Assembly: GCF_028641065.1 (NCBI RefSeq)
Contig: NC_073391.1
Location: 45,942,001-46,006,000 of the forward strand
Source: Leucoraja erinacea
Lineage: Eukaryota
Reading direction: 5' to 3'
Length of the DNA stretch: 64,000 nucleotides
A program made the translations under genes and the position numbers. This document shows positions 1-62,545 of this stretch, piece after piece (within the stretch, counting starts at the first letter, position 1; every line of letters starts with the position of its first letter). The notes beneath the pieces are model-generated. The model was not told the DNA's origin. It was given only the letters and a program-made list of their open reading frames with translations, and searched no databases.

Positions 1-190
1 CTCCGGAGTCTTTTGTCCACGGACCGCATGCGCGACTTGGCCGCACCCACTTCCGGGCTCTCCGCGCCTGCGCGCTTGGTATGGCCTGCAACATAGGGCG
101 AGTTCTGGGGCGCGGGGCTTTCTGGGTAAAAAGGGCGCCATGGACATGACCTGAAATCACCGGCTCAGCGTTCCCCAATGGACAACAGCC
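1..190 (-). promoter_or_regulatory. ZNF-unit promoter/exon-1 cassette (its gene lies left of the window)
   Basis: Same CpG-rich sequence as the cassettes upstream of the other ZNF exons; contains ACTTCCGG (ETS-like), CGCATGCGC (NRF1-like) and TTCTGGGTAAA (ZNF143-like). Confidence 0.6.
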
Positions 191-197
191 ACGAGGT

Positions 198-534
198 CAG
201 GGGTTCCCAACCGTTTTCTTCCCGTTTAACCCTGGTGACGTTAATAGCACGTGTTAATAGCACTAGCAATGTTAGTTCACTTATTTATGAACATCTAATG
301 ATGAACAGAAGGTACACAAAATTGCTGGAGAAGCAGCAGCATCTATGGAGCGAAGGAAATAGGCAACGTTTCGGGCCGAAACCCTTCTTCAGATGAACAG
401 ATACCAGAACCAGAACCAACACAGTCGGTCAATGAGAGAAAATATGCACAAATCCAGAATCACCAAATTTACCTCCTGGGTGGGCGAAATTTCCCCCCAT
501 GTGGGGTAAATTTACCCCAGGTTGGGAATCCTTG
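198..534. mobile_element. hAT(Charlie)-like MITE with a nested Penelope-derived fragment (about 311-392)
   Basis: TIRs CAGGGGTTCCCAACC / GGTTGGGAATCCTTG; 8-bp TSD degraded; inner insert flanked by the direct repeat GATGAACAGA. Confidence 0.55.
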
Positions 535-1046
535 CACTATGGAGAGCATAATCCTTGTATATGGAGAGCAACAGTGACATCTCGCAACCGATGTAATCGA
601 TGAAGCCAGGTGTCAAAGGTGATGGGGAGAAGGTAGAAGCATGGGGTTAGGAGAACGGGCTAGATCCGCCATGAGGGAATGGCGGAGTAGACTTGATGCA
701 TTTATTGTCACATGCTCCAGTGGCAGGGAGCAGCTGGGCCGAATGGCCTCTCCCCCTACATCGAGTGTGTTGCAGAGACAGAGGCTAGGACCTGAGACAT
801 CGGGTTTACAACAGAACTCATTTGTTTATCTTAAACGCGGAAAATTAAATCCCAGCTTGGAAATAGCAATTACAATAACAATTGTAATCATGTATTGTCT
901 TTCTGTTGGCTGGTTAGCACAAAACAAAAGATTTTCACTGCACCTCGACACAAGTGACACTAAACAAAACGCACAGAACATGTGAGCAGCCTCTACCCAG
1001 TGTGAATTCTCTGCTGGGCCACCAGGCTACTAGTATCAGTGAAGCC

Positions 1047-1533
1047 TCACGCACAGTTGGGAGAGGCCAGTGGCTTCTCCACAGCGTGAACTTGCTGGTG
1101 GGTCTTCAGGTTGGATAATCGTGTGAATCCCTTCCTGCACTCAGAGCAGGTGAGGGGTTTCTCCCCGGTGTGAAGCTGATAGTGTGCCCTGAGATTCGAC
1201 AATTGAACACACCCTTCTCCACACACAGAGCAGGTGAACGTCTCTCCCCGGAGTGAATTCGCTGGTGTCTCTTCAGGGATAGACAATAGACAATAGGTAC
1301 AGGAGTAGACCATTCAGCCCTTCGAGCCAGCACCGCCATTCAATGTGAGCATGGCTGATCATCCACAATCAGTACCCCGTCTCTGCCATCTCCCCATATC
1401 CCCTGACTCCGCTATCTTTAAGATTTGATCGAATACCTTCCCACAATCCGGACAGGCAAATGGTTTCTCCTTGCTGGCGAGGAGATTGAGCGAGCCCCTG
1501 CCCACACTCAGAGCTGGTGGATGATTTCTCCAT
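1047..1533 (-). pseudogene. C2H2 ZNF pseudogene (3 fingers), paralogue of 4826-6019
   Basis: MEKSSTSSECGQG start and AVEKPLASPNCA end; first finger split by a CR1 3' fragment (about 1278-1422) and a frameshift. Confidence 0.8.
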
Positions 1534-1711
1534 AGCTGCAAGCTCTCTGGTGTCTTGGCGGCTCAGCTGACACAGTGAATCCCTCCCGCGCACTTCATGT
1601 GCTGGTGAACTGAAGGAGTTTTAGATTCCTGGAAGTCAATACTCTGCCTGTTCTATGCTGTAAAAAGTGTTTACAATAAATTAACAGTTTATAGGAATAT
1701 CTATAATATCT

Positions 1712-2222: not shown

Positions 2223-3618
2223 CGAGGTAAAGATCAGTGTTTTAGTCTCCGTGATGAGACATCTCGCTGTGACAGAGAGGCCAATAGTGAGCTGGGGGAA
2301 CAAGCCCTTGTCTTCTGTTTGGGCTCAACATCAGATTCGCCAACGGTCTGTCTGTCTGTCTTTTTGTTTGGTATTTTTAGGGTGTTTTAAAAAGTTTGTG
2401 TTAAATTTCTCTGGTTTGTTTTATGTGGGGGGGTCGGGGGGAAACCGTTTTTCAGTCTCTTACCTTGCCAGAGATGCGTTTTTTTTTCCGGGTTGTATAT
2501 CCGGACGCTCTGCGGCCCAACATCGTGGAGCTGGCGGCCTTGCTCGAGACTTTAGGCCCCACCGTGGGGCCGTGGACTTACCATCGGGCCTGCAATCGCC
2601 TGGGATCAACGCTCTAACCAGGGGCAACATCGAGGAGCTCGCAGTCTCGGGTAGAAACTGATGTCGGGAAGCTCCAAAGTCGCAGATGGTTCGACTATCC
2701 CCGCCCCGGGGTCTGATCGCCCTGCGCGGGGGAGCTGAGATTCCCCTCCCCTGATGCAGAGGGCCCCGACCGCCGGCTATGGGAGCCAAGATCGTCCCGT
2801 CAACGGAAGGCTCGAGACACCCCCTAGATTGAACTTTTTCCTTCGCCTTCCATCACAGTGGGGAATGTGGAGTAATCGCTGTGGTGGATGTTTATGTTAA
2901 AATGTGTTTTCTGTGTCTTGTTGCTTTTTTGTCGGTATGGACTATATGACAAATCAAATTCCTCGTCTGTTGCGAAATATACTTGGCTAATAAAGTATGA
3001 TTATGATTTATTTCATGTCTGCAAAGGATTGGTTCCGGGGCCATTTGTGCCATTCCTCTCTCGCGCTGTGTCTTGGCCCAGGTTTTCACTCCATTAATGA
3101 AGGAGGCCTCACCTGCTGGGCAAGTCCCACATCCCCACAATGAGCCACACACGGTATTTTTGTGGCTGATTCAGTGGACGTTCTGGCCCCGGGTGACCCC
3201 ACCCCCACGGTGAACATCGCCGATGGTAATGCCATGTGTAGATGATCAGAAGGTCAGAAGGAATAAGGGTTAGTATTAGGCCGTTTGGCCCATCAAGTCT
3301 AGCCCGCCTTTCAATCGGAGCTTCTGTATCTCATGAACTCAGAAGAACGTGGACCTCGTGGCTCATCCAAGGAAGAACAGCAACGTTGGCAGGGAGCAGC
3401 TGGGCCGAATGGCCTCTCCACGTTAATAGAGTGTGTTGCAGAGACGGAGGCAAGGACCTGAGACACTGGGTTTACAACAAAACACATTTATTTATCTTAA
3501 ACACTGAAAATTAAATCCCAGCTCAGAAATAGCAATTACAGGTACAACAATTGTAATCATGTATTGTCTTTCTGTTGACTGGTTAGCACACCATATAACC
3601 ATCTAACAATTACAGCAC

Positions 3619-4447: not shown

Positions 4448-4825
4448 AAGCACTCAGACCATAACCCTCCATTCCTTTCCCGTCCATATACCTATCCAAT
4501 TTATTTTTAAATGATAAAAACGAACCTGCCTCCACCACTTCCACTGGAAGCTCATTCCACACAGCTACCACTCTCTGAGTAAAGAAGTTCCCCCTCATGT
4601 TGCCCCTAAACTTTTGTCCCTTAATTCTCAAATCATGTCCTCTTGTTTGAATCTTCCCTACTCTCAATGGGAAAAGCTTATCCACGTCAACTCTGTCTAT
4701 CCCTCTCAACACGACAATAGCTTTTCACTGTACCTCGACACAAGTGACAATAAACAGACATGCACAGACATGTGAGCAGCCCCTCCCCAGTGCGAGTTCC
4801 CTGCTGGGCCACCAGGTTACTAGTA

Positions 4826-6019
4826 TCAGTTGGGAGAGGCCAGTGGCTTCTCCACGGCGTGAACTTGCTGGTGGGTCTTCAGGTTGGAAAACCGCGTGAA
4901 TCCCTTCCCGCACTCAGAGCAGATGAACAGTCTCTCCCCGGTGTGAACTTGCTCATGTCTCTTCAGGTAGATCAACCTAGTGAACCCCTTCCCGCACTCA
5001 GAACAGATGAACGGCCTCTCCCCGGTGTGAGTTCGCTGGTGCAATTGCAGCCGAGACACATCGAGAAATACTTTCCCGCACACGGAACAAGTGAACGGTC
5101 TCTCCGTGGTGTGAAGCCGCTCGTGTTTTTTCAAATAGTTCAACCCAGTGAATCCCTTCCCACACACGGAACAGGCGAACGGCCTCTCGCCGGTGTGAAT
5201 CCGCTGGTGTGATCGTAGCCGGTATAAATGTATAAATCCCTTCCCACACTCAGAACAAGTGAACGGCCTCTCCCCGGTGTGAATAGGCTGGTGTGTCTGC
5301 AGCTGCGATAATTGTACAAATCCCATCCCACACACGGAACAAGTGAACGGCCTCTCCCCAGTGTGAATTCGCCGGTGGGTCAGCAAGCTGGAAGAGTCAG
5401 TGAATCCCTTTCCACACTCGGAGCAGATGAACGGCTTGTCCCCGCTGTGAATCTGCTCGTGTCTCTGTAGCCCAGAGAAATCAATGAACCCCTTCCCGCA
5501 CACAGAGCAGGTGAACGGCCTCTCTCCAATGTGTATCCGCTGGTGTGACTGCAGGTGAGAGGACTGTATAAACCCCTTCCCACACTCATAGCAGGTGAAC
5601 GGCCGCTCCCCGCTGTGAATCCGCTGGTGCTTCTGCAGTCCCGACAGCTGAGTAAATCCCTTGCCGCACTCGGAGCAGGTGAAGGGTTTCTCCCCGGTGT
5701 GAAGCTGGTAGTGTGTCCTGAGATTCGACAATTGAACGTACCCTTTCCCACACACGGAGCAGGTGAACGGCCTCTCCCCCGTGTGAATCTGCCGGTGTCT
5801 CTGCAGCCCGGACAGTGCCGTGAACCCCTTCCCGCACTCAGAGCAGGTGAACGGCCTCTCCCCGGAGTGGGTTCGCTGGTGCCTCTTCAGGTAGCAGACC
5901 TGAGCGAATCCCTTCCCACAATCGGGGCAGGCAAACGGTTTCTCCACGGTGTGGTCCTGCTGGCGGGGAGATTGATCGAGTCCCTGCCCGCGCTCAGGGC
6001 TGGTGGACGATTTCTCCAT
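4826..6019 (-). CDS. C2H2 zinc-finger protein, 13 fingers, 397 aa
   Basis: Uninterrupted ORF of CxxC-12-HxxxH repeats with TGERP linkers; acceptor TTTACAG at 6144; cognate promoter cassette at about 9080-9300. Confidence 0.9.
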   Translation of the reverse strand: MEKSSTSPERGQGLDQSPRQQDHTVEKPFACPDCGKGFAQVCYLKRHQRTHSGERPFTCSECGKGFTALSGLQRHRQIHTGERPFTCSVCGKGYVQLSNLRTHYQLHTGEKPFTCSECGKGFTQLSGLQKHQRIHSGERPFTCYECGKGFIQSSHLQSHQRIHIGERPFTCSVCGKGFIDFSGLQRHEQIHSGDKPFICSECGKGFTDSSSLLTHRRIHTGERPFTCSVCGMGFVQLSQLQTHQPIHTGERPFTCSECGKGFIHLYRLRSHQRIHTGERPFACSVCGKGFTGLNYLKKHERLHTTERPFTCSVCGKVFLDVSRLQLHQRTHTGERPFICSECGKGFTRLIYLKRHEQVHTGERLFICSECGKGFTRFSNLKTHQQVHAVEKPLASPN

Positions 6020-6177
6020 CGCTGCAAGCTCTCTGGTGTCTTTGGCGGCTCAGCTGACACAGTGAGTCCGTCCCGCGCGTTCACTTGCTGGTGAACTGAA
6101 GGAGTTTTAGATTCCCGGATGTCGATCCTCTCCCTGTTCTATCCTGTAAAAAGAGTTTACAATAAATGAACAGTTTA

Positions 6178-8480: not shown

Positions 8481-9079
8481 ATGGCTGATCATCCAACTCA
8501 GTATCCTGTACCTGCCTTCTCTCCATACCCCCTGATCCCTTTAGCCACAAGGGCCACATCTAACTCCCTCTATCATCCTACACACACTAGGGACAATTTT
8601 ACATGTCGCGAGCATTGCCACTTTCATTTCACTGCACATCTCGTATGTGTATGTGACAAATAAACTTGACTTGACTCTTAAATATACCCAATGAACTGTG
8701 GCCTCAATACTCTCTGTGGCAGAGAATTCCACAGATTCACCACTCTCTGTGTAAAAAATGATTTTCTCATCTCAGTCCTAAAAGATGCCTCACCAACAGA
8801 GCTACCCCACAGATCTGCCCTCCTGCCTGTCCTTGCTATAGGACATCACAGACGTTCAGGTTTGTAGGTTCATTGGTTTGATGTTACTGGTGTAACTGTG
8901 AATGTACAAATAAATGTCCCTATTGTGTGTGTGTGTGTGTGGGGGGGGTCGTGTTAACGTCCGGGGATTTCTCGAGTCAGGACCTTATTTCCTGGCCGGC
9001 TGCGTTACTCCAGCACTTTGTGTCTTTTTCTTGTGAAGCCGCGCCCGCAGTTCCCTGCATCTAGAACAAGGTCCTTGAT

Positions 9080-9300
9080 CCGCGCTCCTACCTGCAGCCG
9101 ATCCTCCGGAGTCTTTTGTCCACGGACCGCATGCGCGACTTGGCCGCACCCACTTCCGGCTCCGCCGCGCCTGCGCGCCGCTTGGTGTCGCCTGCGACAT
9201 AGGGCGAGTTCTGGGGCGCGGGCGTTTCTGGGTAAATCGGGCGCCATGGAGCATGACCTGAAATCACCGGCTCAGCGTTCGCCAAATGGACAACAACCAC
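9080..9300 (-). promoter_or_regulatory. Promoter/non-coding exon 1 for ZNF 4826-6019
   Basis: Cassette copy; putative donor CAG|GTAGGAG at 9091; TE-filled intron of about 2.9 kb. Confidence 0.6.
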
Positions 9301-16756: not shown

Positions 16757-17188
16757 CTACTCAGTGTGAATTTTCCGGTGTTTCTTCAGGTTGCAGGCTT
16801 GAGAGAACCCCTTCCCACAACCAGAGCAGGTGAAGGGCTTCTCCCCGGTATGAATCAGCTGATGTGTCAGTAGCCTCGATGATGAGGTCAATCCCTTCCC
16901 GCAAACAGAACAGGTGAAGGGCTTCTCCCCCGCGAGAATTCTCTGGTGTGTCCTCAGGTTGCCGGCCTGAGAGAATCCCTTCCCACAATCGGGACAGGGA
17001 ATTGTTTTCTGGGCAATCTGGACAAGTTCAGCGTGAACTTGCTTTTGGTGACTCTTCAGGTTGTTTGCTTGAGTGAATCCCTTCCCACAATCGGGACAGG
17101 GAAATGGTTTCTCCACAGCGTGGTCTTGCCGGTGGGAAGATGGAGTGAATCCCAGCTCACTCTCAGAGCTAGTGAATAATGTCTCCAT
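16757..17188 (-). pseudogene. Short or truncated C2H2 ZNF (4 fingers before a premature TAG)
   Basis: ATG at 17188; linker reads HTE*RPF and a fifth finger follows the stop; finger 2 lacks the last His. Confidence 0.7.
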
Positions 17189-17402
17189 GCTGCGGAATTT
17201 ATGGTGCCTCGTCGGCTCAGCTGACACAGTGAATCCCTCCCACGCGTTCAGGTGCAGGTTTGAGATTCCCGAGCATCAATATCCTCTACTTGTTCTATCC
17301 TGTAAGAAAAGGTTTACACTAAATTAACAGGCAAAGATCGGTATTTCAGACGAGGTGATTTTAGTCTCCATGGTTTGCTGTTTTCGATAAATAACTGGAT
17401 TC

Positions 17403-19932: not shown

Positions 19933-20643
19933 TCAAAGAGTGAAGAAACATCTTGTTGAAACGTCCACTCCAGTGTGAACTCGCTGATGAGCCATCAGGT
20001 TGGAAGACTGGGTGAATCTTTTCCCACACACAGAGCAGGGGTACGGCTTCTCCCCGGTGTGAACCCGCTGGTGTGACCTGAGGTGCGATAATTGGATGAA
20101 TCCCTTCCCACACACAGAGCAAGTGAACGGCCTCTCCCCGGTGTGAATCCGTTGGTGCGATTGAAGCTGAGACAATTGAATGAATCTCTTCCCACACACA
20201 GAGCAGGGGAACGGCCTCTCCCCAGTGTGAATCCGCTGGTGTGACCCGAGATGCGATAATTGAATGAATCCCTTCCCACACTCAAAACAGACGAACGGCC
20301 TCTCCCCGGTGTGAATCCGCCAATGTGACTGTAGCTGAGATAACTGAATGAATCCCTTTCCACACTCAAAACAGACGAACGGCCTCTCGCCAGTGTGGAT
20401 CCGCCAGTGTGATTGCAGCTGAGATAACTGAGTGAATCCCTTCCCGCACTCAGAACAGACGAACGGCCTCTCGCCAGTGTGAACTCGCTGGTGTGTCTGC
20501 AGCTGAGACAGCTGAATGAATCTTTTCCGGCACACGGAACAGGCGAACGGTCTCTCCCCGGTGTGAATCCGCTCGTGTACTAGCAGCCGGGAAGTTTGAG
20601 CAAATCCCTTCCCACACTCAGAGCAGGTGAATAATGTTTCCAT
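19933..20643 (-). CDS. C2H2 zinc-finger protein, 8 fingers, 236 aa
   Basis: ATG ([11 protein letters not shown]) at 20643; eight intact fingers; acceptor at about 21169; promoter cassette at 22262-22560. Confidence 0.85.
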
Positions 20644-22099: not shown

Positions 22100-22560
22100 T
22101 TGGCCATGGCCGCCTCTTTACCCACAACCACCCGCGAGACAGAAACCGGTCTATCCGTCACCGTGCTGTCGATGCGCATGCGCCGTCACTGACGGGCGGG
22201 AAACTCCCCGGGGCCCGGGTGTGGAGGGAGGGGGAGGGGGGGAGGACCAGCACGTGACGGGCCACCGTGTCCCCGAGGGCCGCACCGATTCTCCCCGCAG
22301 CCGGGGGCCGCTCCTCAGGCCGGGGCCTCGGTGCTGACTGATCCCGCGCCCGGATCCCCGCTCCTACCCGCCGCCGATCCTCCGGAGTCTTTTGTCCACG
22401 GACCGCATGCGCGCCAGGGTCGCGCCACTTCCGGGGCTCTCCGCGCCTGCGCAGTTCATATCGTCTGCAACATAGGGCGAGTTCTGGGGCGCGGGGATTT
22501 CTGGGTAAGGACGGCGCCATGGAAATGACCTGAAATCACCGGCTCAACGTTCCCGAATGG
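22100..22560 (-). promoter_or_regulatory. Promoter/exon-1 cassette (22262-22560) abutting a type B cassette (22100-22260)
   Basis: Cassette homology; ETS-, NRF1- and ZNF143-like motifs; GG|GTAGGAG donor. Confidence 0.6.
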
Positions 22561-23074
22561 AGTGAATATTCACTTGGTCCTTTTGTGTGCCCCCAGACGT
22601 TGAAACCTGGAACAGTGGATACAGTAGATATAGTAAATCATGAACCAAGTACCGTTTTTGTCTGAAGAAAGGTCTCAAGCCGAAACGTCTCCCATTCCTT
22701 GAATTGAATTGAATAACCTTCAATAATCCTTTACAGGAAATTACAGTGCCACAACAGCTTCAAGACAGACATAACACCACACATTTTCACAGATAGCTTC
22801 AATACTTAATAAGTTAAAATATAATGAATGAATACTAAAAAAAATCCAAAATTATTTTTGTGCATTATAAAACCTTATAGCAGCTGGTATACAAGACTTC
22901 CTATATCTCTCCGTTTTGCACATTGGTGCAATCAGTCTCTGACTGAAGATGCTGCACTTGATCATCTTCAGGGCGTGGAGTGGGTGAGTGGGGTTGGTCA
23001 TTATTGAACCTAGTTTGTTTAGAGATGAATCCTTCTCTCCAGAGATGCTGCCTGTCCCGCTGCGTCACTCCAGC

Positions 23075-24499: not shown

Positions 24500-24730
24500 C
24501 AGTGGCGGGCCACCTTGTCCCCGCTCCTGCCTGCCGCCGATCCTCCCGGAGTCTTTTGCTCACGGTCCGCATGCGCGGCTTGTTCGCACCCACTTCCGGG
24601 CTCTCCGCACCTGGTATCGCCTGCAACATAGAGCGAGTTCTCGGGCGTGGGGGTTTCTGGGTAAAGAGGGCGCCATGGAAGTTACCTAAAATCACCGGCT
24701 CAGCATTCCCCAATGGACAACAGTCACTTG
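24500..24730 (-). promoter_or_regulatory. Promoter/exon-1 cassette
   Basis: Cassette homology; donor altered to GCAGGAG. Confidence 0.5.
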
Positions 24731-25392: not shown

Positions 25393-25962
25393 TCTACCCA
25401 CAGTTGGGAGAGGCAACTGGTTTCTCCACGGCGTGAACTCGCTGGTGGGTCATCAGGTGGGAATATTGTGCGAATCCCTTCCCACACTCGGAGCAGATGA
25501 ACGGCCTCTCCCCGGTGGTGTGAACTCTCTGATTGTCGCTTCCCACACCCGGAGCAGATAACGTGGACTCTCGGCCTCATGAGTGAATCGCTTCCCACAC
25601 TCGGGACAGTTGAAGGGCTTCTCCCCGGTGTGAATGCGCTGATGTGTCTTCAAGCTGCTCACATGAGCGAATCCCTTGCCACAATCAGAGCAGATGAACG
25701 GCCTGTCCCCAGTGTGAGTTCTCTGGTGTGCCTGCAATACAGTCGAGTCAATGAACCCCTTCCCACACTCGGAGCAGGAGAACGGCCTCTCCCCGGTGTG
25801 AATTCTCTGGTGCCTCTTCAACTGGTTTGCATGAGTGAATCCCTTCCCACAATCGGGACAGACAAATGCTTTCCCCAGAGCGTGATCTTGCTGGTGGGTC
25901 ACCGGGTGGGGAGATTGAGTGGACCCCTGCTCACACTCAGAGCTGGTGGATAATGTCTCCAT
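25393..25962 (-). pseudogene. C2H2 ZNF pseudogene, paralogue of 35680-36795
   Basis: Near-identical N-terminus [13 protein letters not shown]; 3 intact fingers, then a scrambled, frameshifted stretch at about 25510-25585, then the terminal finger. Confidence 0.75.
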
Positions 25963-30764: not shown

Positions 30765-31090
30765 ACCGGCACCGTCCCCAGGTGACGGGCCACCGTGTCC
30801 CCGGGGGCCGCACCGATTCTCCCCGCAGCCGGGGGCCGCTCCTCAGGCCGGGCCTCGGTGTTGCCTGATCCCGCGCCCGGATCCCCGCTCCTACCCGCCG
30901 CCGATCCTCCGGAGTCTTTTGTCCCGGACCCGCGGCACCACTTCGGGCTCTCCGCGCCTGCGCAGTTGTTATCGTCTGCAACATAGGGCGGGTTCTAGGG
31001 CGCGGGGGCTTCTGGGTAAAGACGGCACCATGAAAGTGACCTGAAATCACCGGCTCAGCGTTCCCCAAAGGACAACAGCTACTTGGTCCT
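30765..31090 (-). promoter_or_regulatory. Promoter/exon-1 cassette for ZNF pseudogene 25393-25962
   Basis: Cassette homology, with a deletion removing the GCGCATGCG motif. Confidence 0.55.
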
Positions 31091-34714: not shown

Positions 34715-35035
34715 GGACCGGCACCGTCCCCACGTGACCCCGAGGACCGGACCGATTCTACCCGCAGCCGGGGGCCGCTCCTCAGGCGGTGCCGACTGAT
34801 CCCGTGCCCGGATCCCCGCTCCTACCTGCAGCCGATCCTCCGGAGTCTTTTGTCCACGGACCGCATCCTCATCTTGGCCGCACCACGTCCGGGCTCTCCG
34901 CGCCTGTGCACTTGTTATCGCCTGCAACATAGGGTGAGTTCTGGGGCGCGGGGGCTTCTGGGTAAAGAAGGCATCATGGAAGTAACATGAAATCACCGGT
35001 TCAGCGTTCCCCAATGGACAACATCCACTTGGTCC
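34715..35035 (-). promoter_or_regulatory. Orphan promoter/exon-1 cassette
   Basis: Cassette homology; no ZNF exon before the next cassette. Confidence 0.5.
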
Positions 35036-35679: not shown

Positions 35680-36795
35680 CTACCCACAGTTTGGAGAGGC
35701 AACTGGTTTCTCCACAGCGTGAACTCGCTGGTGGGTCACCAGGTGGGAATATTGTGTGAATCCCAACCCACACCCGGAGCAGATGAACGTCCTCTCCTCG
35801 GCGTGAATTTGCTGATGTGTCAACATGCTGGTCAAATGAGTAAACCCCATTCCACAATCAGAGCAGGTGTACGGACTCCCCCCAGTGTGAATTCTGCTGT
35901 GTCTCAGCAACGCAGATGAACGAGGGTATCCCTTCCCACACACAGTGCAGGTGAACGGCTTGTCCCCACTGTGAATTCTCTGGTGTGTCTGCAATGCGTC
36001 CGAGTCAATGAATCCTTTCCCGCAGTCGGGGCAGGTGAACGGCCTCTCCACCATGTGAACTCTGCGGTGTCTCAGTAACGCAGACGAGCGAGTGTATGCT
36101 TTCCCACACTCGGTGCAGGTGAATCGCTTCTCCCCGCTGTGAATTCTCTGGTGCGTCAGCAATGCGTCTGCGTCGACGAACCTCTTCCGGCACTCGGAGC
36201 AGATGAACGGCCGCTTGTGAATTCTCTGGTGCACCACTAACGCAAAGGAATGAACAAATCCCCTCCCACACTCAGAGCAGATGAACGGCCTCTCCCCGCT
36301 GTGAATTTTCTGGTGTCTCGCTAACGAACACGACTGAGTGAATCCCTTCCCGCACTCGGGGCAGACGAACGGCCGCTTGTGAATTCTCTGGTGCGCCACT
36401 AACGCAAAGGAATGAACAAATCCCTTCCCGCACTCAGAGCAGGTGAACGGCCTCTCCCCGGTGTGAATTTTCTGATGCCTCACTAGCGTATACGATTGGG
36501 TGAATCCCTTCCCACACATGGAGCAGGTGAACGGCCTCTTCCCGGTGTGAATCCTCTCGTGCGCCACTAACGCAAAGGATTGAACGAATCCCTTCCCGCA
36601 CTCAGAGCAGATGAATGGCCTCTCCCCGGTGTGAATTCTCCGGTGCCTCGTCAAGTGGCCTGCTTGAGTGAATCCCTTCCCACAATCGGGACAGACAAAT
36701 GGTTTCCCCAGAGCGTGATCTTGCTGGTGGGTCACCAGGTGGGGAGATTGAGTGGACCCCTGCTCACACTCAGAGCTGGTGGATAATGTCTCCAT
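35680..36795 (-). CDS. C2H2 zinc-finger protein, 12 fingers, 371 aa
   Basis: ATG at 36795; intact ORF; two shortened HKRPF linkers; promoter cassette at 39107-39410. Confidence 0.9.
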   Translation of the reverse strand: METLSTSSECEQGSTQSPHLVTHQQDHALGKPFVCPDCGKGFTQAGHLTRHRRIHTGERPFICSECGKGFVQSFALVAHERIHTGKRPFTCSMCGKGFTQSYTLVRHQKIHTGERPFTCSECGKGFVHSFALVAHQRIHKRPFVCPECGKGFTQSCSLARHQKIHSGERPFICSECGRGFVHSFALVVHQRIHKRPFICSECRKRFVDADALLTHQRIHSGEKRFTCTECGKAYTRSSALLRHRRVHMVERPFTCPDCGKGFIDSDALQTHQRIHSGDKPFTCTVCGKGYPRSSALLRHSRIHTGGSPYTCSDCGMGFTHLTSMLTHQQIHAEERTFICSGCGLGFTQYSHLVTHQRVHAVEKPVASPNCG

Positions 36796-39106: not shown

Positions 39107-39410
39107 TGTCCCCGGGGACCGCACCGATTCTCCCCGCAGCCGGGGGCCGCTCCTCAGGCCGGGCCTCGGTGCTGACTGATCCCGCGCCCGGATCCCCGCT
39201 CCTACCCGCCGCCGATCCTCGGGTGTTTTTTGCCCACGGACCGAATGCGCGACTGGGCCGCACCACTTCCGGGTCTCTCCGCGCCTGCGCGCTTGGTATC
39301 GCTTGCAACATAGGGCGAGTTCTGGGGCGCGGGCGTTTCTGGGTAAAGAGGGCGCCATGGACATGACCTGAAATCACCGGCTCAACGTTCCCCAATGGGC
39401 AGCAGACACT
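39107..39410 (-). promoter_or_regulatory. Promoter/exon-1 cassette for ZNF 35680-36795
   Basis: Cassette homology; ACTTCCGG, GCGCCTGCGC, TTCTGGGTAAA. Confidence 0.6.
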
Positions 39411-42645: not shown

Positions 42646-44613
42646 CTACCCATAGTTGGGAGAGGCAAATGGTTTCTCCACAGCGTGAATTCGCTGGTGT
42701 GTCTTCAGGTTTGAAGATTGAGTGAATTTCTTCCCACACTCAGAGCAGGTGAACGGCCTCTCCCCTGAATGAATTCTCTGGTGTACCATTAACACAGATG
42801 ACCGAGAGAATCCCTTCCCACACTCAGAGCAGGTGAACGGACGTTCTCCAGAGTGAATTCTCTGATGTTTCAGTAACACAGACGACTGAGTGAACCCCTT
42901 CCCACACTCAGAGCAGGTGAACGGCCGTTCTCCAGAGTGCATTCTCTGGTGTGTCAGGAACACAGACGCCTGAGTGAATCCCTTCCCACACTCAGAGCAG
43001 GTGAACGGTCTCTTCCCAGGGTGAAGGTTGAGATGTTTTCGTAAAGTCGATGAATGTGCGAATCCCTTCCCACAATCAGGACAGACAAATGGTTTCTCCC
43101 CAGTGTGAATTCGCTGGTGGGATACCAGGTTGCAAGATTGGTTGAATCCCATCCCGCACTCGGAGCAGGTGAACGGCCTCTCCCCCGTGTGAATTCTCTG
43201 ATGAATCTTTAGGTTGTTTGCTACAGTGAATCGCTTCCCACAATCGGGACAGGCAAATGGTTTCTCCTCCGTGTGAACTCGCTGGTGGGATAGCAGTTGG
43301 GAAGATTGGCTGAATGCCTTCCTGCACTCAGAGCAGGTGAATGGCCTCTCCTCCGTGTGAATTCGCTGGTGTCTCAGTAACTGAGATGAACGAGTAAATC
43401 CCATCCCACATTCAGAGCAGGTGAACGGCCTCTCTCCAGTGTGAATTCGCTGGTGTGTCTTCAGGTTTGAAGATTGAGTGAATTTCTTCCCACACTCAGA
43501 GCAGGTGAACGGCCTCTCCCCTGAATGAATTCTCTGGTGTACCACTAACACAGATGACCGAGAGAATCCCTTCCCACACTCAGAGCAGGTGAACGGACGT
43601 TCTCCAGAGTGAATTCTCTGGTGTTTCAGTAACACAGACGACTGAGTGAATCCCTTCCCACACTCAGAGCAGGTGAACGGCCGTTCTCCAGAGTGCATTC
43701 TCTGGTGTGTCAGGAACACAGACGCCTGAGTGAATCCCTTCCCACACTCAGAGCAGGTGAACGGTCTCTTCCCAGGGTGAAGGTTGAGATGTTTTCGTAA
43801 AGTCGATGAATGTGCGAATCCCTTCCCACAATCAGGACAGACAAATGGTTTCTCCCCAGTGTGAATTCGCTGGTGGGATACCAGGTTGCAAGATTGGTTG
43901 AATCCCATCCCGCACTCGGAGCAGGTGAACGGCCTCTCCCCCGTGTGAATTCTCTGGTGAATCTTTAGGTTGTTTGCTACAGTGAATCGCTTCCCACAAT
44001 CGGGACAGGCAAATGGTTTCTCCTCCGTGTGAACTCGCTGGTGGGATAGCAGCTGGGAAGATTGGCTGAATGCCTTCCCGCACTCAGAGCAGGTGAATGG
44101 CCTCTCCTCCGTGTGAATTCGCTGGTGTCTCAGTAACTGAGATGAACGAGTAAATCCCATCCCACATTCAGAGCAGGTGAATGGCCTCTCTCCAGTGTGA
44201 ATTCGCTGGTGATTCTGTAACGCATATGATTCAATGAATCCCTTCCCACACTCAGAGCAGACAAACGGCTTCTCCCCTGTATGAATTCTCTGGTGCAGCA
44301 GCAACTTATATGATCCAATGAATCCCTTCCCACATTCAGAGCAGGTGAACGGCCTCTCTCCAGTGTGAATTCGCTGGTGATTCTGTAACGCATATGATTC
44401 AATGAATCCCTTCCCACACTCAGAGCAGGTGAACGGCCTCTCCCCTGTGTGAATACGCTGATGCCTCTTCAGTAGGTACGATTGAGTGAATCCCTTCCCA
44501 CAATCGGGACAGGTAAACGGTTTCTCCACAGTGTGAACTTGCTGTCGGGTCAACAGGTGGGAAGATTGGTTTAATCCCTGCCCACACTCAGAGCTGGCCA
44601 GTAATTTCTCCAT
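42646..44613 (-). CDS. C2H2 zinc-finger protein, 22 fingers, 655 aa
   Basis: ATG ([11 protein letters not shown]) at 44613; intact ORF; putative intron 44735-44927; includes a 756-bp internal tandem duplication. Confidence 0.92.
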   Translation of the reverse strand: MEKLLASSECGQGLNQSSHLLTRQQVHTVEKPFTCPDCGKGFTQSYLLKRHQRIHTGERPFTCSECGKGFIESYALQNHQRIHTGERPFTCSECGKGFIGSYKLLLHQRIHTGEKPFVCSECGKGFIESYALQNHQRIHTGERPFTCSECGMGFTRSSQLLRHQRIHTEERPFTCSECGKAFSQSSQLLSHQRVHTEEKPFACPDCGKRFTVANNLKIHQRIHTGERPFTCSECGMGFNQSCNLVSHQRIHTGEKPFVCPDCGKGFAHSSTLRKHLNLHPGKRPFTCSECGKGFTQASVFLTHQRMHSGERPFTCSECGKGFTQSSVLLKHQRIHSGERPFTCSECGKGFSRSSVLVVHQRIHSGERPFTCSECGKKFTQSSNLKTHQRIHTGERPFTCSECGMGFTRSSQLLRHQRIHTEERPFTCSECRKAFSQSSQLLSHQRVHTEEKPFACPDCGKRFTVANNLKIHQRIHTGERPFTCSECGMGFNQSCNLVSHQRIHTGEKPFVCPDCGKGFAHSSTLRKHLNLHPGKRPFTCSECGKGFTQASVFLTHQRMHSGERPFTCSECGKGFTQSSVLLKHQRIHSGERPFTCSECGKGFSRSSVLMVHQRIHSGERPFTCSECGKKFTQSSNLKTHQRIHAVEKPFASPNYG

Positions 44614-44799
44614 GCTGTGACCTGTCTGGCGTCCGGGCGGATCAGCTGACGCAGTGAATCCTCCCACACGTTCAGGCGCCGGTGAAATAAACGAGTTGGA
44701 GATTCCTGAACATCAATCCTCTGCTTCTTCTACCCTGTAAAAAGAGTTGACCATAAATTAACAGGTAAAGATCTGTCCGGGTCGGGACCCTTCCTCTCA

Positions 44800-45135
44800 C
44801 CGGTCAATCCGTGCATTCGATGCGCTCACGCCGCCGGGGACCGCACCGATTCTCCCCGCAGCCGGGGGCCGCTCCTCAGGCCGGGCCTCGGTGCTGACTG
44901 ATCCCGCGCCCGGATCCCCGCTCCTACCCGCCGCCGATCCTCCGGAGTCTTTTGTCCACGGACCGCATGCGCGCCTTGGCCGCACCACTTGCGGGGTTCT
45001 CCGCGCCTGCGCGCTTGGTATCGTCTGCAACATAGGGCGGGTTCTAGGGCGCGGGTGTTTCTGGGTGAAGACGGCGCCATGGACACGATCTGAAATCACC
45101 GGCTCAACGGTCCCCAATGAACAACAGCCACTTTG
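44800..45135 (-). promoter_or_regulatory. Promoter/exon-1 cassette for ZNF 42646-44613
   Basis: Cassette homology; donor GG|GTAGGAG at 44927. Confidence 0.65.
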
Positions 45136-50332: not shown

Positions 50333-51832
50333 CTACCCATGGTTTGGAGAGGCAAATGGTTTCTCCACAGCGTGAAGTCGCTGGTGGGTCTTCAGGTTAG
50401 AAGATTGAGTGAATTTCTTCCCACACTCAGAGCAGGTGAACGGCCTCTCCCCTGAGTGAATTCTCTGGTGTCCCAGTAACGCAGATGACTGGGAGAATCC
50501 CTTCCCACACTCAGAGCAGGTGAACGGACGCTCTCCAGAGTGAATTCTCTGGTGTATCAGTAACACAGACGACTGAGTGAACCCCTTCCCACACTCGGAG
50601 CAGGTGAACGGCCGTTCTCCAGAGTGAATTCTCTGGTGTGTCAGGAACACAGATGCCTGAGTGAATCCCTTCCCACACTCAGAGCAGGTGAACGGTCTCT
50701 TCCCAGGGTGAACGTTGAGATGTTTTCGTAAAGTTGATGATTGAGCGAATTCCTTCCCACAATCGGGACAGACAAATGGTTTCTCCGCAGTGTGAACTCG
50801 CTGGTGGGATACCAGGTTGCAAGATTGGGTGAATCCCATCCCGCACTCGGAGCAGGTGAACGGCCTCTCCCCCGTGTGAATTCTCTCATGCACCACCAAC
50901 GCAAAGGAGTGAGCAAATCCCTGCCCACACTCGGAGCAGGTGAACGGCCTCTCCCCGGTGTGAATTCGCTGGTGGGTCTTCAGGTTACTTGCTACAGTGA
51001 ATCCCTTCCCACAATCGGGACAGGCAAATGGTTTCTCCGCAGTGTGAACTCGCTGGTGGGACACCAGTTTGGAAGATTGGCTGAATCCCTTCCCGCACTC
51101 GGAGCAGGTGAACGGCCTCTCCTCTATGTGAATTCTCTGGTGTCTCAGTAACTCAGATGAACGAGTAAATCCCTTCCCACAATCAGAGCAGGTGAACGGC
51201 CTCTCTCCAGTGTGAATGCGCTGGTGTATCTGTAACGCATACGAATCAATGAATCTCTTCCCACACTCAGAGCAGAAAAACGGCCTCTCCCCCGTGTGAA
51301 TTCTCTGGTGTAGCAGCAACTGAGATGAACAAGTAAATCCCTTCCCACATTCAGAGCAGGTGAATGGCCTCTCTCCAGTGTGAATCCGCTGATGTATCTG
51401 TAACGCATATGATTCAATGAATCCCTTCCCACACTCAGAGCAAGTGAACGGCCTCTCTCCTGTGTGAATTTTCTGGTGTCTCTTCAGTAGGTACGATTGA
51501 GTGAACCCCTTCCCACAATCTGGACATGTAAGCGGCTTCTCTGCAGCGTGAACCTGCTCGTGATTCCTCAGGTTGCGAGAATGTGTGAATGCCTTCCCAC
51601 ACTCGGAGCAGTTAAATGGCCTCTCACCGGTTTGAACTCGCGGACGTGTTGGCAGCCTCTGCCCGGTGTGAATCTGCTGGTGCCACTTTAGCTCGCTAGC
51701 TTGAGAGAATCCCTTCCCACAATCGGGACAAGTAAACGGTTTCTCCACAGTGTGAACTTGCTGTCGGGTCAACAGGTGGGAAGATTGGTTTAATCCCTGC
51801 CCACACTCAGAGCTGGCCAGTAATTTCTCCAT
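50333..51832 (-). CDS. C2H2 zinc-finger protein, 16 fingers, 499 aa
   Basis: ATG at 51832; intact ORF; N-terminus identical to the 42.6-kb and 60.5-kb genes. Confidence 0.92.
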
Positions 51833-52014
51833 GCTGTGACCTGTCTGGCGTCCGGGCGGATCAGCTGACGCAGTGAATCCTCCCACACGTTCAGGCGCAG
51901 GTGAAATAAACTAGTTTGAGATTCCTGAACATCAATCCTCTACTTTTTCTATCCTGTAAAAAGAGTTGACCATAAAAACAGGTAAAGGTCTGTCCGGATC
52001 GGGACCCTTCCTCT

Positions 52015-52480
52015 CACCGGTCAATCCGTGCATTCGATGTGCTCACGCCGCCGGGGACCGCACCGATTCTCCCCGCAGCCGGGGGCCGCTCCTCAGGCCG
52101 GGCCTCGGTGCTGACTGATCCCGCGCCCGGATCCCCGCTCCTACCCGCCGCCGATTCTCCGGAGGTACACAAAAATGCAGGAGAAACTCAGCGGGTGCAG
52201 CAGCATCTATGGCGTGAAGGAAATAGGTGACGTTTCGGGCCGAAACCCTTCTTCAGGCCCTGTTTTCCAGCATCTGCAGTTCCTTCTTAAACGCCGATTC
52301 TCCGGAGTCTTTTGTCCACGGACCGCATGCGCACCTTGGCAGCACCACTTCCGGGGCTCTCCGCGCCCTGCAACATAGGGCGAGTTCTGGGGCGCGGAGG
52401 TTTCTGGGTAAACAGGGCGCCATGGACATGATCTGAAATCACCCGCTCAGCGTTCCCCAATGGACATCAGCAACTTTGTC
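52015..52480 (-). promoter_or_regulatory. Promoter/exon-1 cassette for ZNF 50333-51832, interrupted by a 127-bp insertion
   Basis: Cassette homology; insert 52165-52291 flanked by a 16-bp TSD. Confidence 0.65.
52165..52291. mobile_element. Short Penelope-derived insertion with a hammerhead-like core
   Basis: TSD CGCCGATTCTCCGGAG (52149-52164 / 52292-52307). Confidence 0.7.
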
Positions 52481-54295: not shown

Positions 54296-54334
54296 ATTCA
54301 CACAAGTTCTGTTATCCCACTTTCTTCACCCACT

Positions 54335-58282: not shown

Positions 58283-58302
58283 CAAAGATCCTAGGATCTT
58301 TG
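58283..58302. mobile_element. Putative P-like transposon excision footprint
   Basis: Palindrome CAAAGATCCTAGGATCTTTG between 8-bp direct repeats GTCTAGTA. Confidence 0.7.
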
Positions 58303-58427
58303 GTCTAGTATGTTATAAGTACAGGTAGACACGTGGTTTGGGTCACAAAATGAAACGAAAAAGCACCTCTGCCCATGGGCTACAAATAAATGAGTTCTGT
58401 TGTAAACCCCTTGTCTTACAAACTTAA

Positions 58428-59584
58428 AGCACACGGCATTGGGGGTTCAGTATTGATGTGGATAGAGAACTGGCTGGCAAACAGGAAGCAAAGAGTAGGA
58501 GTAAACGGGTCCTTTTCACCAAAGATCTTTGCTTTTCACAATGGCAGGCAGTGACTAGTGGGGTACCGCAAGGCTCAGTGCTGGGACCCCAGCTATTTAC
58601 AATATATATTAACGATCTGGACGAGGGAATTGAAGGCAATATTTCCAAGTTTGCGGATGACACTAAGCTGGGGGGCAGTGTTAGGTGTGAGGAGGATGCT
58701 AGGAGACTGCAAGGTGACTTGGATAGGCTGGGTGAGTGGGCAAATGTTTGGCAGATGCAGTATAATGTGGATAAATGTGAGGTTATCCATTTTGGTGGCA
58801 AAAACGGGAAAGCAGACTATTATCTAAATGGTGGCCGATTGGGAAAGGGGGGAGATGCAGCGAGACCTGGGTGTCATGGTACACCAGTCATTGAAGGTAG
58901 GCATGCAGGTGCAGCAGGCAGTAAAGAAAGCAAATGGTATGTTGGCTTTCATTGCAAAAGGATTTGAGTATAGGAGCAGGGAGGCTCTACTGCAGTTGTA
59001 CAGGGTCTTGGCGAGACCACACCTGGAGTATTGCGTACAGTTTTGGTCTCCAAATCTGAGGAAGGACATTATTGCCATAGAGGGAGTGCAGAGACGGTTC
59101 ACCAGACTGATTCCTGGGATGTCAGGACTGTCTTATGAAGAAAGACTGGATAGACTTGGTTTATACTCTCTAGAATTTAGGAGATTGAGAGGGGATCTTA
59201 TAGAAACGTACAAAATTCTTAAGGGGTTGGACAGGCTAGATGCAGGAAGATTGTTCCCGATGTTAGGGAAGTCCAGGACAAGGGGTCACAGCTTAAGGAT
59301 AAGGGGGAAATCCTTTAAAACCGAGATGAGAAGAACCTTTTTTTTCACACAGAGAGTGGTGAATCTCTGAAACTCTCTGCCACAGAGGGTAGTTGAGGCC
59401 AGTTCATTGGCTATATTTAAGAGGGAGTTAGATGTGGCCCTTGTGGCTAAGGGGATTAGGGGGTATGGAGAGAAGGCAGGTATGGGATACTGAGTTGGAT
59501 GATCAGCCATGATCATATTGAATGGCGGTGCAGGCTCAAAGGGCCGAATGGCCTACTCCTGCACCTAATTTCTATGTTTCTATG
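58428..59584 (+). mobile_element. CR1 (HER1-like) LINE, 5'-truncated
   Basis: ORFs 58458-58967 and 58828-59370 ([18 protein letters not shown]-terminus) and tail. Confidence 0.88.
58520..58531. mobile_element. Putative P-like transposon excision footprint
   Basis: Palindrome CAAAGATCTTTG between 8-bp direct repeats CTTTTCAC; absent from the homologous CR1 site at about 47240. Confidence 0.7.
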
Positions 59585-60034
59585 TCTCCGCATGCAATGT
59601 AGGCCACTCGGCCCATCTGGTCACTCACTGTCAGTTTTGTCTTCTGTTGACTTTTTGGAATGTTCTTGTATTTCTTCCTGTTTAAGAAGGTACTGCAGAT
59701 ACTGCAAAACCAAAGGTAGACAAAATGCTGGAGAAACTCAGCGGGTGGAGCAGCATCTATGGAGCGAAGGAAATAGGTGGCATTTTGTGTCGAGACCCTT
59801 TTTCAGACGGCAAGTGACAACATATGTCATGCTGTCATTTGAGGTCGGAGCACCAAGGCAAATTCCTTGTATGTGATTAGGTGGTCAATAAACGTATTCA
59901 AACTCAAACTTAATTGGTTCGTGAGTCTGATAGTTCCAACATTCGGCACTTGTGAGTGTAATGATTTTTAATGGTATCGACGAGAGAGGTCGCTGTGTTA
60001 AATTGACTGCACACTCTCCACATACAAGGACCAA

Positions 60035-60370
60035 GTGACTGTTGTCCATTGGGGAACGCTGAGCTGGTGATTACAGATCATGTCCATGGCGCCGACTTTA
60101 CCCAGAAATCTCCGCGCCCCAGAACTCACCCTATGTTGCAGGCGATACCTAGCGCGCAGGCGCGGAGAACCCGGAAATGGTGCTGCCAAGGCGCGCATGC
60201 GGTCCGTGGACCAAAAGACTCCGGAGGATCGGCGGCGGGTAGGAGCGGGGATCCGGGCGCGGGATCAGTCAGCACCGAGGCCCCGGCCTGAGGAGCGGCC
60301 CCCGGCTGCGGGGAGAATCGGTGCGGTCCCCGGCGGCGTGAGCGCATCGAATGCACGGATTGACCGGTGA
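60035..60370 (+). promoter_or_regulatory. Promoter/exon-1 cassette for ZNF 60554-62545 (inverted copy)
   Basis: TTTACCCAGAA 60097, GCGCAGGCGC 60154, CCGGAAAT 60171, GCGCATGCG 60193; donor GT 60239, acceptor AG 60432. Confidence 0.65.
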
Positions 60371-60553
60371 GAGGAAGGGTCCCGACCCGGACAGATCTTT
60401 ACCTGTTAATTTATGGTCAACTCTTTTTACAGGGTAGAAGAAGCAGAGGATTGATGTTCAGGAATCTCTAACTCGTTTATTTCACCGGCGCCTGAACGTG
60501 TGGGAGGATTCACTGCGTCAGCTGATCCGCCCGGACGCCAGACAGGTCACAGC

Positions 60554-62545
60554 ATGGAGAAATTACTGGCCAGCTCTGAGTGTGGGCAGGGATTAAACCA
60601 ATCTTCCCACCTGTTGACCCGACAGCAAGTTCACACTGTGGAGAAACCGTTTACCTGTCCCGATTGTGGGAAGGGATTCACTCAATCGTACCAACTGAAG
60701 AGGCACCAGCGAATTCACACCGGGGTGAGGCCGCTCACTTGCTCTGAGTGTGGGAAGGGATTCTTTCGTTTATCGGCGTTGCAGGTACATCGGAGAATTC
60801 ACACGGGGGAGAGGCCATTCGTCTGCTCGGAGTGCGGGAAGGGATTCACTCGTTCATTCTCATTGCTGAAACACCAGAGAATTCACACCAGGGAGAGGCC
60901 GTATGTCTGCTCGGAGTGCGGGAAGGGATTCAGCCAAGCTTCCCTGCTGGTGTCCCACCGGCAAGTTCACGCTGTGCAGAAACCATTTCCCTGTCCCGAT
61001 TGTGGGAAGGGATTTGCTGAAGCAGACGGCCTGAGGAGGCACCAGCAAATCCACACCGGGGAGAGGCCGTTTGTCTGCTTTGTGTGTGGAAAGGGATTCG
61101 CTCGTTCGTTTTCATTGTTGATGCACCAGCGGATTCACACTGGCGAGAGGCCGTTCATCTGCTCCGAGTGTGGGAAGGGGTTCAACCAAGCTTCCCACCT
61201 GGTGACTCACCAGCAACTTCACGCTGCAAAGAAACCATTTCCCTGTCCCGATTGTGGGAAGGGATTCACACAGGCAGACAGCCTGAAGAAGCACCAGCTT
61301 ATTCACACCAAGGAGAGGCCGCTCACCTGCTCCGAGTGTGGGAAGGGTTTTTTTCGTTCATCTGCGTTACGGATACACCGGAGGATTCACACCGGGGAGA
61401 GGCCCTTTGTCTGCTCCCAGTGTGGGAAGGGATTCAGCCAATCTTCCCACCTGAAGAGACACCAGCAAGTTCACGCTGTGGTGAAACCATTTACCTGTCC
61501 CGATTGTGGGAAGGGATTCTCTCGAGCGAGCCAGCTAAAGTGGCACCAGCAGATTCACACCGGGCAGAGGCTGCCAACATGTCCGCGAGTTCAGACCGGC
61601 GAGAGGCCGTTTACCTGCTCCGAGTGTGGGAAGACATTCACACATTCTCGCAACCTGAGGAATCACGAGCGGGTTCACGCTGCAGAGAAGCCGCTTGCAT
61701 GTCCAGATTGTGGGAAGGGGTTCACTCAATCGTGCCAACTGAAGAGGCACCAACATATTCACACAGGGGAGAGGCCGTTCACTTGCTCTGAGTGTGGGAA
61801 GGGATTCATTGGATCATCTCAGTTGCTGATACACCAGCGAATTCACACGGGGGAGAAGCCGTTTGTTTGCCCTGAGTGTGGGAAGAGATTCATTGAATCA
61901 TCTGCATTACAGATACACCAGCGAATTCACACCGGAGAGAGGCCGTTCACCTGCTCTGAATGTGGGAAGAGATTTACTCGTTTTTCTGTCATGAGAACAC
62001 ACCAGAGAATTCACACCGGGGAGAGGCCGTTCACCTGTGCTGAGTGTGGGAAGGGATTCAATCAATCGTATCTGTTGGTGACACACCAGAGAATTCACAC
62101 CGGGGAGAGGCCGTTCACTTGCACTGAGTGTGGGAAGGGATTCGCTCATTCATCTACGTTAGCAAGACACCAGAGTATTCACACTGGGCAGAGGCCATTC
62201 AGCTGCTCTGAGTGTGGGAAGGGCTTTGCTCACTTTGATCAGCTGAGAGCCCACCAGCGAGTGCACACTGGGGAGAAACCATTTGCCTGTCCCGAATGTG
62301 GCAAGGGATTCACTCAAGCCGGCAATCTGAAGAAGCACCGGCAAAGACACACCGGGGAGAGGTCGTCAACCGGTTTTGGGTGTGCGGAGGGGCTCAGCGA
62401 GCCGCCCGCGACGGTAGAAATCACGGTGAGGCGTGGCCGAATCCCACGGAACCGGGAACCCGCCTGGAGAGGGAGCTCGCGCCGTGCGCCGCACCAGGGC
62501 TGCGCCACAGCGGACCCGGGCTCTGACGTGGAGACGGTCAAATGA
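60554..62545 (+). CDS. C2H2 zinc-finger protein, 20 fingers plus a non-finger C-terminal tail, 663 aa
   Basis: ATG at 60554 (in-frame stop upstream; the ORF track starts at a GTG); intact ORF. Confidence 0.92.
   Translation: MEKLLASSECGQGLNQSSHLLTRQQVHTVEKPFTCPDCGKGFTQSYQLKRHQRIHTGVRPLTCSECGKGFFRLSALQVHRRIHTGERPFVCSECGKGFTRSFSLLKHQRIHTRERPYVCSECGKGFSQASLLVSHRQVHAVQKPFPCPDCGKGFAEADGLRRHQQIHTGERPFVCFVCGKGFARSFSLLMHQRIHTGERPFICSECGKGFNQASHLVTHQQLHAAKKPFPCPDCGKGFTQADSLKKHQLIHTKERPLTCSECGKGFFRSSALRIHRRIHTGERPFVCSQCGKGFSQSSHLKRHQQVHAVVKPFTCPDCGKGFSRASQLKWHQQIHTGQRLPTCPRVQTGERPFTCSECGKTFTHSRNLRNHERVHAAEKPLACPDCGKGFTQSCQLKRHQHIHTGERPFTCSECGKGFIGSSQLLIHQRIHTGEKPFVCPECGKRFIESSALQIHQRIHTGERPFTCSECGKRFTRFSVMRTHQRIHTGERPFTCAECGKGFNQSYLLVTHQRIHTGERPFTCTECGKGFAHSSTLARHQSIHTGQRPFSCSECGKGFAHFDQLRAHQRVHTGEKPFACPECGKGFTQAGNLKKHRQRHTGERSSTGFGCAEGLSEPPATVEITVRRGRIPRNREPAWRGSSRRAPHQGCATADPGSDVETVK

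Follow-up and report, generated by a model that had tools for sequence, protein, structure and literature searches.

A window of 64,000 nucleotides from the skate Leucoraja erinacea (contig NC_073391.1, here C15, positions 45,942,001-46,006,000) is best explained as the youngest part of a tandem cluster of C2H2 zinc-finger genes that encode fingers only. In these genes about 115 bp behind the inferred transcription start site are near-invariant, while the promoters and the finger arrays diverge. This is the new observation here and likely reflects gene conversion; interlocus conversion anchored at the start site is the explanation that we favour, with moderate confidence. A sequence-only reading of the window had described a self-contained cassette amplified as a unit. 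That description did not hold: promoter, core, leader and fingers have discordant histories, and the introns, which range from less than 0.2 to about 5 kb, are mostly non-homologous between genes, so that the cassette was not copied as one intact block. Positions without a contig name count from the first letter of the window.

The genes are preceded by a CpG-rich module that combines a promoter with a predicted first exon. The best-conserved part of this module was not the set of transcription factor motifs but the roughly 115 bp across and behind the splice donor (60212-60326 in the gene at 60 kb), referred to here as the core. After three partial or rearranged modules out of 34 had been left out of the core alignment, 11 of the 31 copies equalled the column majority throughout, insertions uncounted. 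The core had a mean pairwise difference (p) of 0.038, compared with 0.124 for the promoter and 0.221 for the exon-2 leader. Two of the 31 genes were left out of the gene-distance set and one more out of the pairwise windows; the 341 distant pairs gave p values of 0.000-0.039 in 20-bp windows over 60216-60315 and of 0.09-0.16 in the promoter. Promoters were equally divergent in 17 close pairs, i.e. by about 12% regardless of relatedness. The genes at 60 kb and 44.7 kb illustrate the pattern: between the start site and finger 1 they differ at two of about 500 bases, against 8-16% upstream and 12-28% in most finger windows.

Seven of 29 genes carry a two-base haplotype of the core that cuts across three well supported subfamilies; it takes at least four changes on the downstream tree, and a clade of its carriers was rejected (approximately unbiased test, p 0.0006). 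A second subfamily, with five promoters at 45.60-45.64 Mb, has a core of its own, with p of 0.03-0.12 from the donor to +200 and of 0.3-0.7 upstream, and three of these promoters show no difference in the listed 200 bp behind the donor. Because the finger exons of this subfamily are mostly close too, recent duplication with promoter turnover contributes there. The lowest full-length promoter p was about 0.05-0.06, meaning that the cluster holds no near-identical promoter pair, an argument that copies were overwritten where they stood and did not arise by recent duplication of whole genes. Subfamilies were thus homogeneous internally and separated by fixed differences, and the trees of adjacent segments disagreed, as in the concerted evolution of other tandem families. 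Unlike in those, the tract in the skate breaks off sharply on its 5' side close to the inferred start site and leaves out the promoter, and non-coding sequence is homogenised most strongly whereas the coding array diverges.

Several points count against conversion. The pairs behind the core and promoter comparisons are not independent, and promoter and gene-body distances are correlated, if weakly (Mantel r 0.24, p 0.04). Identity fades gradually into the intron, with p rising from 0.041 in the leader to 0.077 in the last 50 nt and 0.149 at -150 to -51 (20 non-independent pairs). A G-run motif, found in 32 of 34 copies, also arises in 319 of 2000 shuffles. Finally, old paralogues have kept the donor and a motif from the 3' end of the core, so that selection acts on the core too.

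We consider it unlikely, however, that purifying selection on a shared control element is the main reason for the constancy of the core, with conversion secondary. Such an element could be a binding site for the cluster's own long finger arrays, providing feedback, or a pausing or splicing element beside a weak donor. It would fit that the donor and the 3' motif are recognisable in old paralogues, that the most invariant windows flank the donor and carry the G-runs, and that the orphan module at 34.8 kb has a decayed core. The other subfamily, by contrast, has a different and equally uniform core, and the 13-finger gene at 4.8 kb keeps its open reading frame (ORF) without a core. In addition, the linked two-base variant needs sequence exchange, near identity over 500 bp through intron and leader is hard to reach by selection, and the core has no stable RNA fold (z +1.24) and no Rfam match.

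Four other candidates were tried for the core or its surroundings and did not survive. A hypermutable promoter was rejected, as the promoter part of a module copy on another contig, described below, shows no excess change against its source. A structured RNA was dropped, since the window has no Rfam match and the fold is no better than that of shuffled sequences, and a G-quadruplex motif is present but common in shuffles. Strict mRNA templating was set aside on the gradual decay of identity into the intron and the lack of an exact intron-less junction in the genome, and lives on only in the bolder version given further below. In an old subfamily the motif of the core 3' end is conserved about 60-80 nt behind the donor (C15:45,349,587; 45,355,294; 45,372,344).

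Uniform cores could also stem from short-read polishing over similar paralogous segments during assembly, which is very improbable. The cluster does sit at the contig end, and the extra base that the assembly shows at 60211 is missing in 23 of 23 RNA reads and in the other copies, pointing to an assembly error or a private allele. Yet the independent run X15 yielded a single 338-bp contig with one difference, at a depth of 311 versus about 16-37 for most other listed contigs; the copies collapse in this run too, which argues against a polishing artefact. An indel at 60281 is likewise polymorphic in RNA reads (17 of 60) as it is in the assembly, and polishing would not create the two-base haplotype in seven copies.

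In the conversion mechanism that we propose, tracts would open at the start site or shortly after it and extend downstream until homology ends, with a family-wide reach for the core and a subfamily-wide reach for the exon-2 leader and the degenerate first finger. Promoters would be left in place and age separately, and the finger arrays would be reshuffled unit by unit, as the internal nine-finger duplication at 42.6 kb may exemplify. Conversion would likely be non-reciprocal and repeated. Its trigger, as we infer, likely lies in the G-skewed first intron (GC skew 0.48 at 60226-60265), in the form of R-loops or of DNA breakage linked to transcription. The outcome would be a battery of similarly expressed DNA-binding proteins with varied specificity.

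Positions 60035-60434 were used as BLAST query and gave 11 strong matches in the window (E 1e-58 or lower, 83-100% identity), which correspond to 10 modules. The ten copies of about 300 bp reported from sequence alone, with their coordinates, were thus confirmed far above chance. Genome-wide, at least 44 matches were counted, 43 of them on C15 at 45.54-46.01 Mb and one on a second contig (C2); in a second set of matches, 37 of 38 fell on C15 inside the cluster. These genome counts are minimum values. For 33 of 39 modules in the sequence retrieved around the cluster, a co-oriented finger array came next. The claim that the module lies upstream and co-oriented wherever a finger exon follows proved right for the 8 of 10 window modules that reach one, the orphans being those at 24.5 and 34.8 kb. 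The arrays at 1.1 and 16.7 kb have an acceptor and no module of their own. Further acceptor-plus-finger exons without own module lie at C15:45,821,302-45,825,196 and 45,915,059, some in tandem behind another gene, and these exons are possibly alternative last exons.

The motif content of the module was as described for some motifs and less regular for others. We presume the identities of NRF1, ETS and YY1, as these names were given by resemblance only. The NRF1-like pattern GCGCA[GT]GCGC was present in 7 of 10 window copies, as was GCGCATGCG. The ETS-like CCGGAA[GA]T also occurred in seven, and the copy at 60 kb reads CCGGAAAT and not CCGGAAGT. The GTAGGAG donor was found in eight copies; one donor lies just beyond the window and the copy at 24.5 kb has GC. 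A CATGGCG at 60086-60092, YY1-like by the same kind of label, stands 5' of the ZNF143-like site in the majority of copies and also in distant paralogues. The ZNF143-like site was present in all ten window copies and resembles the SBS1 probe in excerpts of PMC3627581.

A profile of the module detected weaker homologues at the promoters of older zinc-finger genes over 45.1-45.8 Mb, and the GGTAGGAGC donor is retained in many distant paralogous promoters. As the older genes carry these homologues and the same donor, the module is an inherited ancestral CpG promoter, with a predicted non-coding exon 1 and donor, of a zinc-finger region of about 2 Mb. The lone module on C2 (66,952,092-66,952,730) matches the module at C15:45.9227 Mb with 97.4% identity along 643 bp and continues into a later piece of the intron, with no finger exon nearby. 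Judged by its sequence it is a small segmental copy, because 560 bp of the flank of one cluster gene came along.

The sequence-only reading had also raised the case of a dispersed transposable element unlinked to finger exons. That the module is a non-autonomous transposon standing near finger exons by chance is hardly credible, even though a single copy has no finger gene and sits on another contig, and 6 of 39 modules are without a co-oriented array after them. Since 43 of the 44 matches fall in one cluster, older zinc-finger genes have homologous promoters and the C2 copy carries the flank of a cluster gene, the module does not behave like a dispersed element.

Finger genes are dense around the window. 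There are 31 ORFs of 7-22 fingers in the last 220 kb and 82 with at least 5 fingers in 923 kb, and the finger linker pattern occurs from 44.0 Mb onward (100 of 164 matches listed). The window lies in the last 81 kb of the 46.02-Mb contig; no telomere repeat was seen at the contig end, and we infer a subtelomeric position of the cluster. The core pattern gave no match in metagenome contigs.

Transcription was assessed with raw poly(A) reads from about 5% of run X24 (organism A), at 88% allowed likeness, so that paralogues pile up. Depth was 0 at 59946-60041, about 1 at 60042-60137, 19 at 60138-60233, 57 at 60234-60329, 29 at 60330-60425 and 46 at 60426-60521. Point depths were 5-7 at 60150-60184, 23 at 60211, 60 at 60281, 14 at 60408 and 41 at 60469. 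As depth climbs from 0 within the module, family transcripts begin inside it; coverage starts where exon 1 had been proposed (24 of 594 loose ends listed).

Evidence for the predicted splicing is less uniform, and three observations disagree with it. The 60238-60433 junction was not among the 15 of 150 RNA joints listed, contig 1 of run X1 crosses the acceptor unspliced, and the depth of 14 at 60408 versus 41 at 60469 indicates read-through of the intron. By our estimate, per-gene depths, with about 33 copies sharing the core and about 6 sharing the short-intron exon 2, fit splicing with partial read-through. A contig of the genome-sized run X15 skips exactly 194 nt at the intron of the 60-kb gene (60235-60430) and is possibly a retrocopy or an intron-less allele in organism D; the exact joined intron-less form was not found in the studied genome. 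A second donor at the core 3' end (GT 60321) was rejected, since old paralogues are without this GT.

The in-frame TGA between acceptor (60432) and ATG (60554) of the 60-kb gene, from which a product of fingers only had been argued, is present. As a general rule the argument broke down: among the 28 of 48 arrays with a recognised acceptor and ATG, 18 have an in-frame stop and 10 have open leaders. The proposal of a product of fingers only was nevertheless upheld in so far as no known effector domain was found. None of the 144 sense-strand frames of at least 36 amino acids (aa) between modules and finger exons of the window matched KRAB, SCAN or BTB, in a search that detected the KRAB and SCAN controls P0131 and P0166. 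Pfam searches of the long ORFs returned zinc-finger families only among the best 25 matches listed per ORF, and sub-threshold Pfam matches in non-coding frames were treated as chance. Genome-wide searches for KRAB and SSXRD, which also bear on PRDM9, found nothing, with no working positive control in either; excerpts of PMC8892340 do not include this genome. Besides the core and the acceptor end, no intron segment was common to most of 30 genes.

A short effector missed by such searches is quite improbable, yet some features would suit it. It could be an N-terminal peptide made from an upstream ATG and an open leader, the degenerate first finger or the C-terminal tail, comparable to the FiNZ domain, which has only 28 aa and was long missed according to excerpts of PMC10547256. 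The upstream ATG lies 41 nt before the donor, within the second NRF1-like motif. Two counts weigh on this side and thereby against a product of fingers only: 20 of 28 leaders, 10 of the 28 being open, share the phase that fits this ATG, and a continuous frame would add about 55 aa in 4 of 24 genes. The ratio of non-synonymous to synonymous differences (pN/pS) of the leader is lowest in the finger frame (0.70, at low power, vs 0.87 and 1.22), and the degenerate finger keeps its frame with a pN/pS of 0.72 (confidence interval 0.58-0.95). This constraint is far weaker than that on the finger frameworks, and stops interrupt 18 of 28 leaders, which also show frameshifting indels and five stop gains or losses. 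Subfamilies do not agree in their internal frames, most genes have lost the upstream ATG or have it out of frame, and RNA depth upstream of it is only 5-7.

A protein of fingers only is likely the true product and likely an old trait of the group, because horn shark has finger-first proteins and many older neighbouring genes have only short open stretches before finger 1. The horn shark proteins P0002, P0015 and P0121 have their first finger at residue 7; the ATG of the skate family is at the same place, in a finger that is now degenerate and in which translation can start. Most skate proteins also end in a truncated finger. Horn shark proteins were among the closest finger matches (51-59%), a database search with the family N-terminus gave four matches, none of them close, and none of ten proteins was found by exact look-up in the collection. 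With ORFs of C2H2 fingers and no other domain, the skate genes probably belong to the finger-only poly-zinc-finger genes, and here promoter, donor and acceptor are mapped as well. Finger-only proteins are therefore not new, being already annotated in horn shark and noted generally in excerpts of PMC2604467, where it is left undecided whether domain-less genes are truly so or incompletely annotated.

C15:45.10-45.80 Mb holds 51 more ORFs with at least 5 fingers, in several subfamilies, several of them with CpG promoters of their own and related motifs. Many of these ORFs start at an ATG within a decayed finger, which suggests repeated N-terminal shortening. At C15:45,762,695 a 13-finger ORF follows 186 aa of acidic 17-residue repeats, which look derived from a finger helix.

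The fingers themselves were compared across 447 units in 41 arrays, which gave 260 contact quadruplets. In all settings the framework had a pN/pS of 0.25-0.30 versus 0.81-0.86 for the contact residues; when homologous fingers were chosen by their neighbours, the values were 0.25-0.28 and 0.81-0.82, with contact intervals of 0.50-1.23, 0.56-1.14 and 0.63-1.02. Finger frameworks are under purifying selection and the proteins are maintained, and contact residues change about threefold faster than the framework. The description of the system as rapidly evolving fits finger order and contact residues and does not extend to positive selection, as in four of five settings the contact intervals extend to 1 or span it, and none lies above it; this, too, is a point against our account.

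By analogy, the proteins might bind repeats or transposon-derived DNA and act without KRAB, a tentative proposal to which we give somewhat less than even chances. Such action could come about by site occupancy or by cofactors docking on the fingers themselves. Numbers of finger genes track retroelements whatever the accessory domain, with the mechanism left open, in excerpts of PMC10547256, and repression of transposons by FiNZ-ZNF genes has been shown by knockdown in the same source. A bolder version would have cartilaginous fishes own an effector-free zinc-finger repertoire for transposon defence that is rewritten from the start site by transcription-coupled, possibly RNA-guided or RNA-templated conversion in the germline. 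In that version, which we regard as a long shot, the common leader would be kept in each gene and finger arrays recombined into new anti-transposon specificities.

The cluster is laid out like KRAB and FiNZ clusters and is a member of neither. It shares with tetrapod KRAB-ZNF clusters the tandem arrangement, all fingers in a single 3' exon and variable finger number, as well as a conserved framework with variable contact residues (PMC2604467, in part), and short conversions among paralogues are reported in KRAB-ZNF clusters in excerpts of the same paper. Unlike those clusters, it has no KRAB exon, its exon 1 is non-coding and its contact pN/pS is not above 1. Cyprinid FiNZ-ZNF genes, as excerpts of PMC10547256 describe them, are likewise a lineage-specific, KRAB-free tandem expansion with a two-exon layout, and one of their clusters is subtelomeric. 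Their first exon, however, encodes the conserved acidic 28 aa, whereas the skate exon 1 has no coding pattern: judged by anatomy, its frame is continuous in only the four genes mentioned. Excerpts of PMC11603059, PMC10380595 and PMC8455134 place KRAB-like and FiNZ systems in bony fishes, and those of PMC8455134 report KRAB-box families to be depleted in cartilaginous fishes. In the open-licence papers searched, we found no account of the skate cluster or of start-site-anchored conversion in zinc-finger clusters.

The cluster bears on how the many tandem finger genes of cartilaginous fishes work. It is a testable KRAB-free zinc-finger repertoire in a cartilaginous fish and supplies a mapped gene model with promoter, donor, acceptor and ATG. 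The shared 115 bp offer a handle by which about 30 genes could be silenced together, making the question of transposon control directly testable in a jawed-vertebrate outgroup. Homogenisation anchored at the start site, in two subfamilies, is moreover a clean natural case in which to ask if transcription steers conversion among paralogues, and it bears on how gene families keep a common expression while binding diversifies.

Table 1. Modules, exons and finger genes of the window, with the parts of the 60-kb gene listed first
Feature	Position	Strand	Details
Promoter part of module	60035..60211	+	ZNF143-like 60098, NRF1-like 60154 and 60193, ETS-like 60171
Inferred start site	~60185-60211	+	RNA depth 5-7 at 60150-60184, 23 at 60211
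Near-invariant core: exon 1 end, donor GT 60239, first ~90 bp of intron	60212..60326	+	G-run motif 60237-60263
Predicted intron (194 nt), with partial read-through in RNA	60239..60432	+	Sequence; donor retained by distant paralogues
5' leader in exon 2, in-frame TGA	60433..60553	+	Sequence
Finger-only ORF, 663 aa, degenerate first finger and 20 C2H2 fingers	60554..62545	+	
Module split by ~128-bp insertion	51953..52470	-	Donor 52144, core 52058-52164
Finger-only ORF, 499 aa, 16 fingers	50333..51832	-	
Module, short intron, acceptor	44733..45131	-	Core 44841-44958, donor 44927
Finger-only ORF, 655 aa, 22 fingers, internal 9-finger duplication (756 bp)	42646..44613	-	
Module	39112..39409	-	Core 39119-39232, donor 39205
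Finger-only ORF, 371 aa, 12 fingers	35680..36795	-	Acceptor near 36922
Orphan module, decayed core (87% identity), another module next downstream	34740..35023	-	
Module, core with two-base variant haplotype	30801..31078	-	Core 30808-30921, donor 30894
Frameshifted finger gene, 3 fingers in frame and 1 beyond, likely pseudogene	25453..25962	-	
Orphan module, donor GT to GC, core deleted	24518..24727	-	
Module	22273..22561	-	Core 22280-22398, donor 22367
Finger-only ORF, 8 fingers, divergent leader	19933..20643	-	
Acceptor, leader, short finger ORF (143 aa), no own module	16757..17337	-	
Module, core behind donor deleted	9077..9295	-	Donor 9091
Acceptor, leader, finger-only ORF (397 aa, 13 fingers)	4826..6173	-	
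Acceptor and two-finger remnant, no own module	1086..1687	-	
Promoter part of module; donor and 9-finger gene just beyond window	1..192	-	

In the tail of the 60-kb gene (62350-62545), an unrelated GC-rich stretch of 60 aa replaces the truncated-finger tail of the family, and RNA depth is low there. A GIY-YIG fragment at 47759-48262 suggests a Penelope-like element. Introns and spacers of the window are filled with 3' fragments of one young CR1-like long interspersed nuclear element, about 91% alike (3618-4448, 17402-18365, 29995-30612, 45349-46205 and 58756-59590); the two most similar named relatives of a fragment, among eight looked up, were whale shark proteins, at 68% and 57%.

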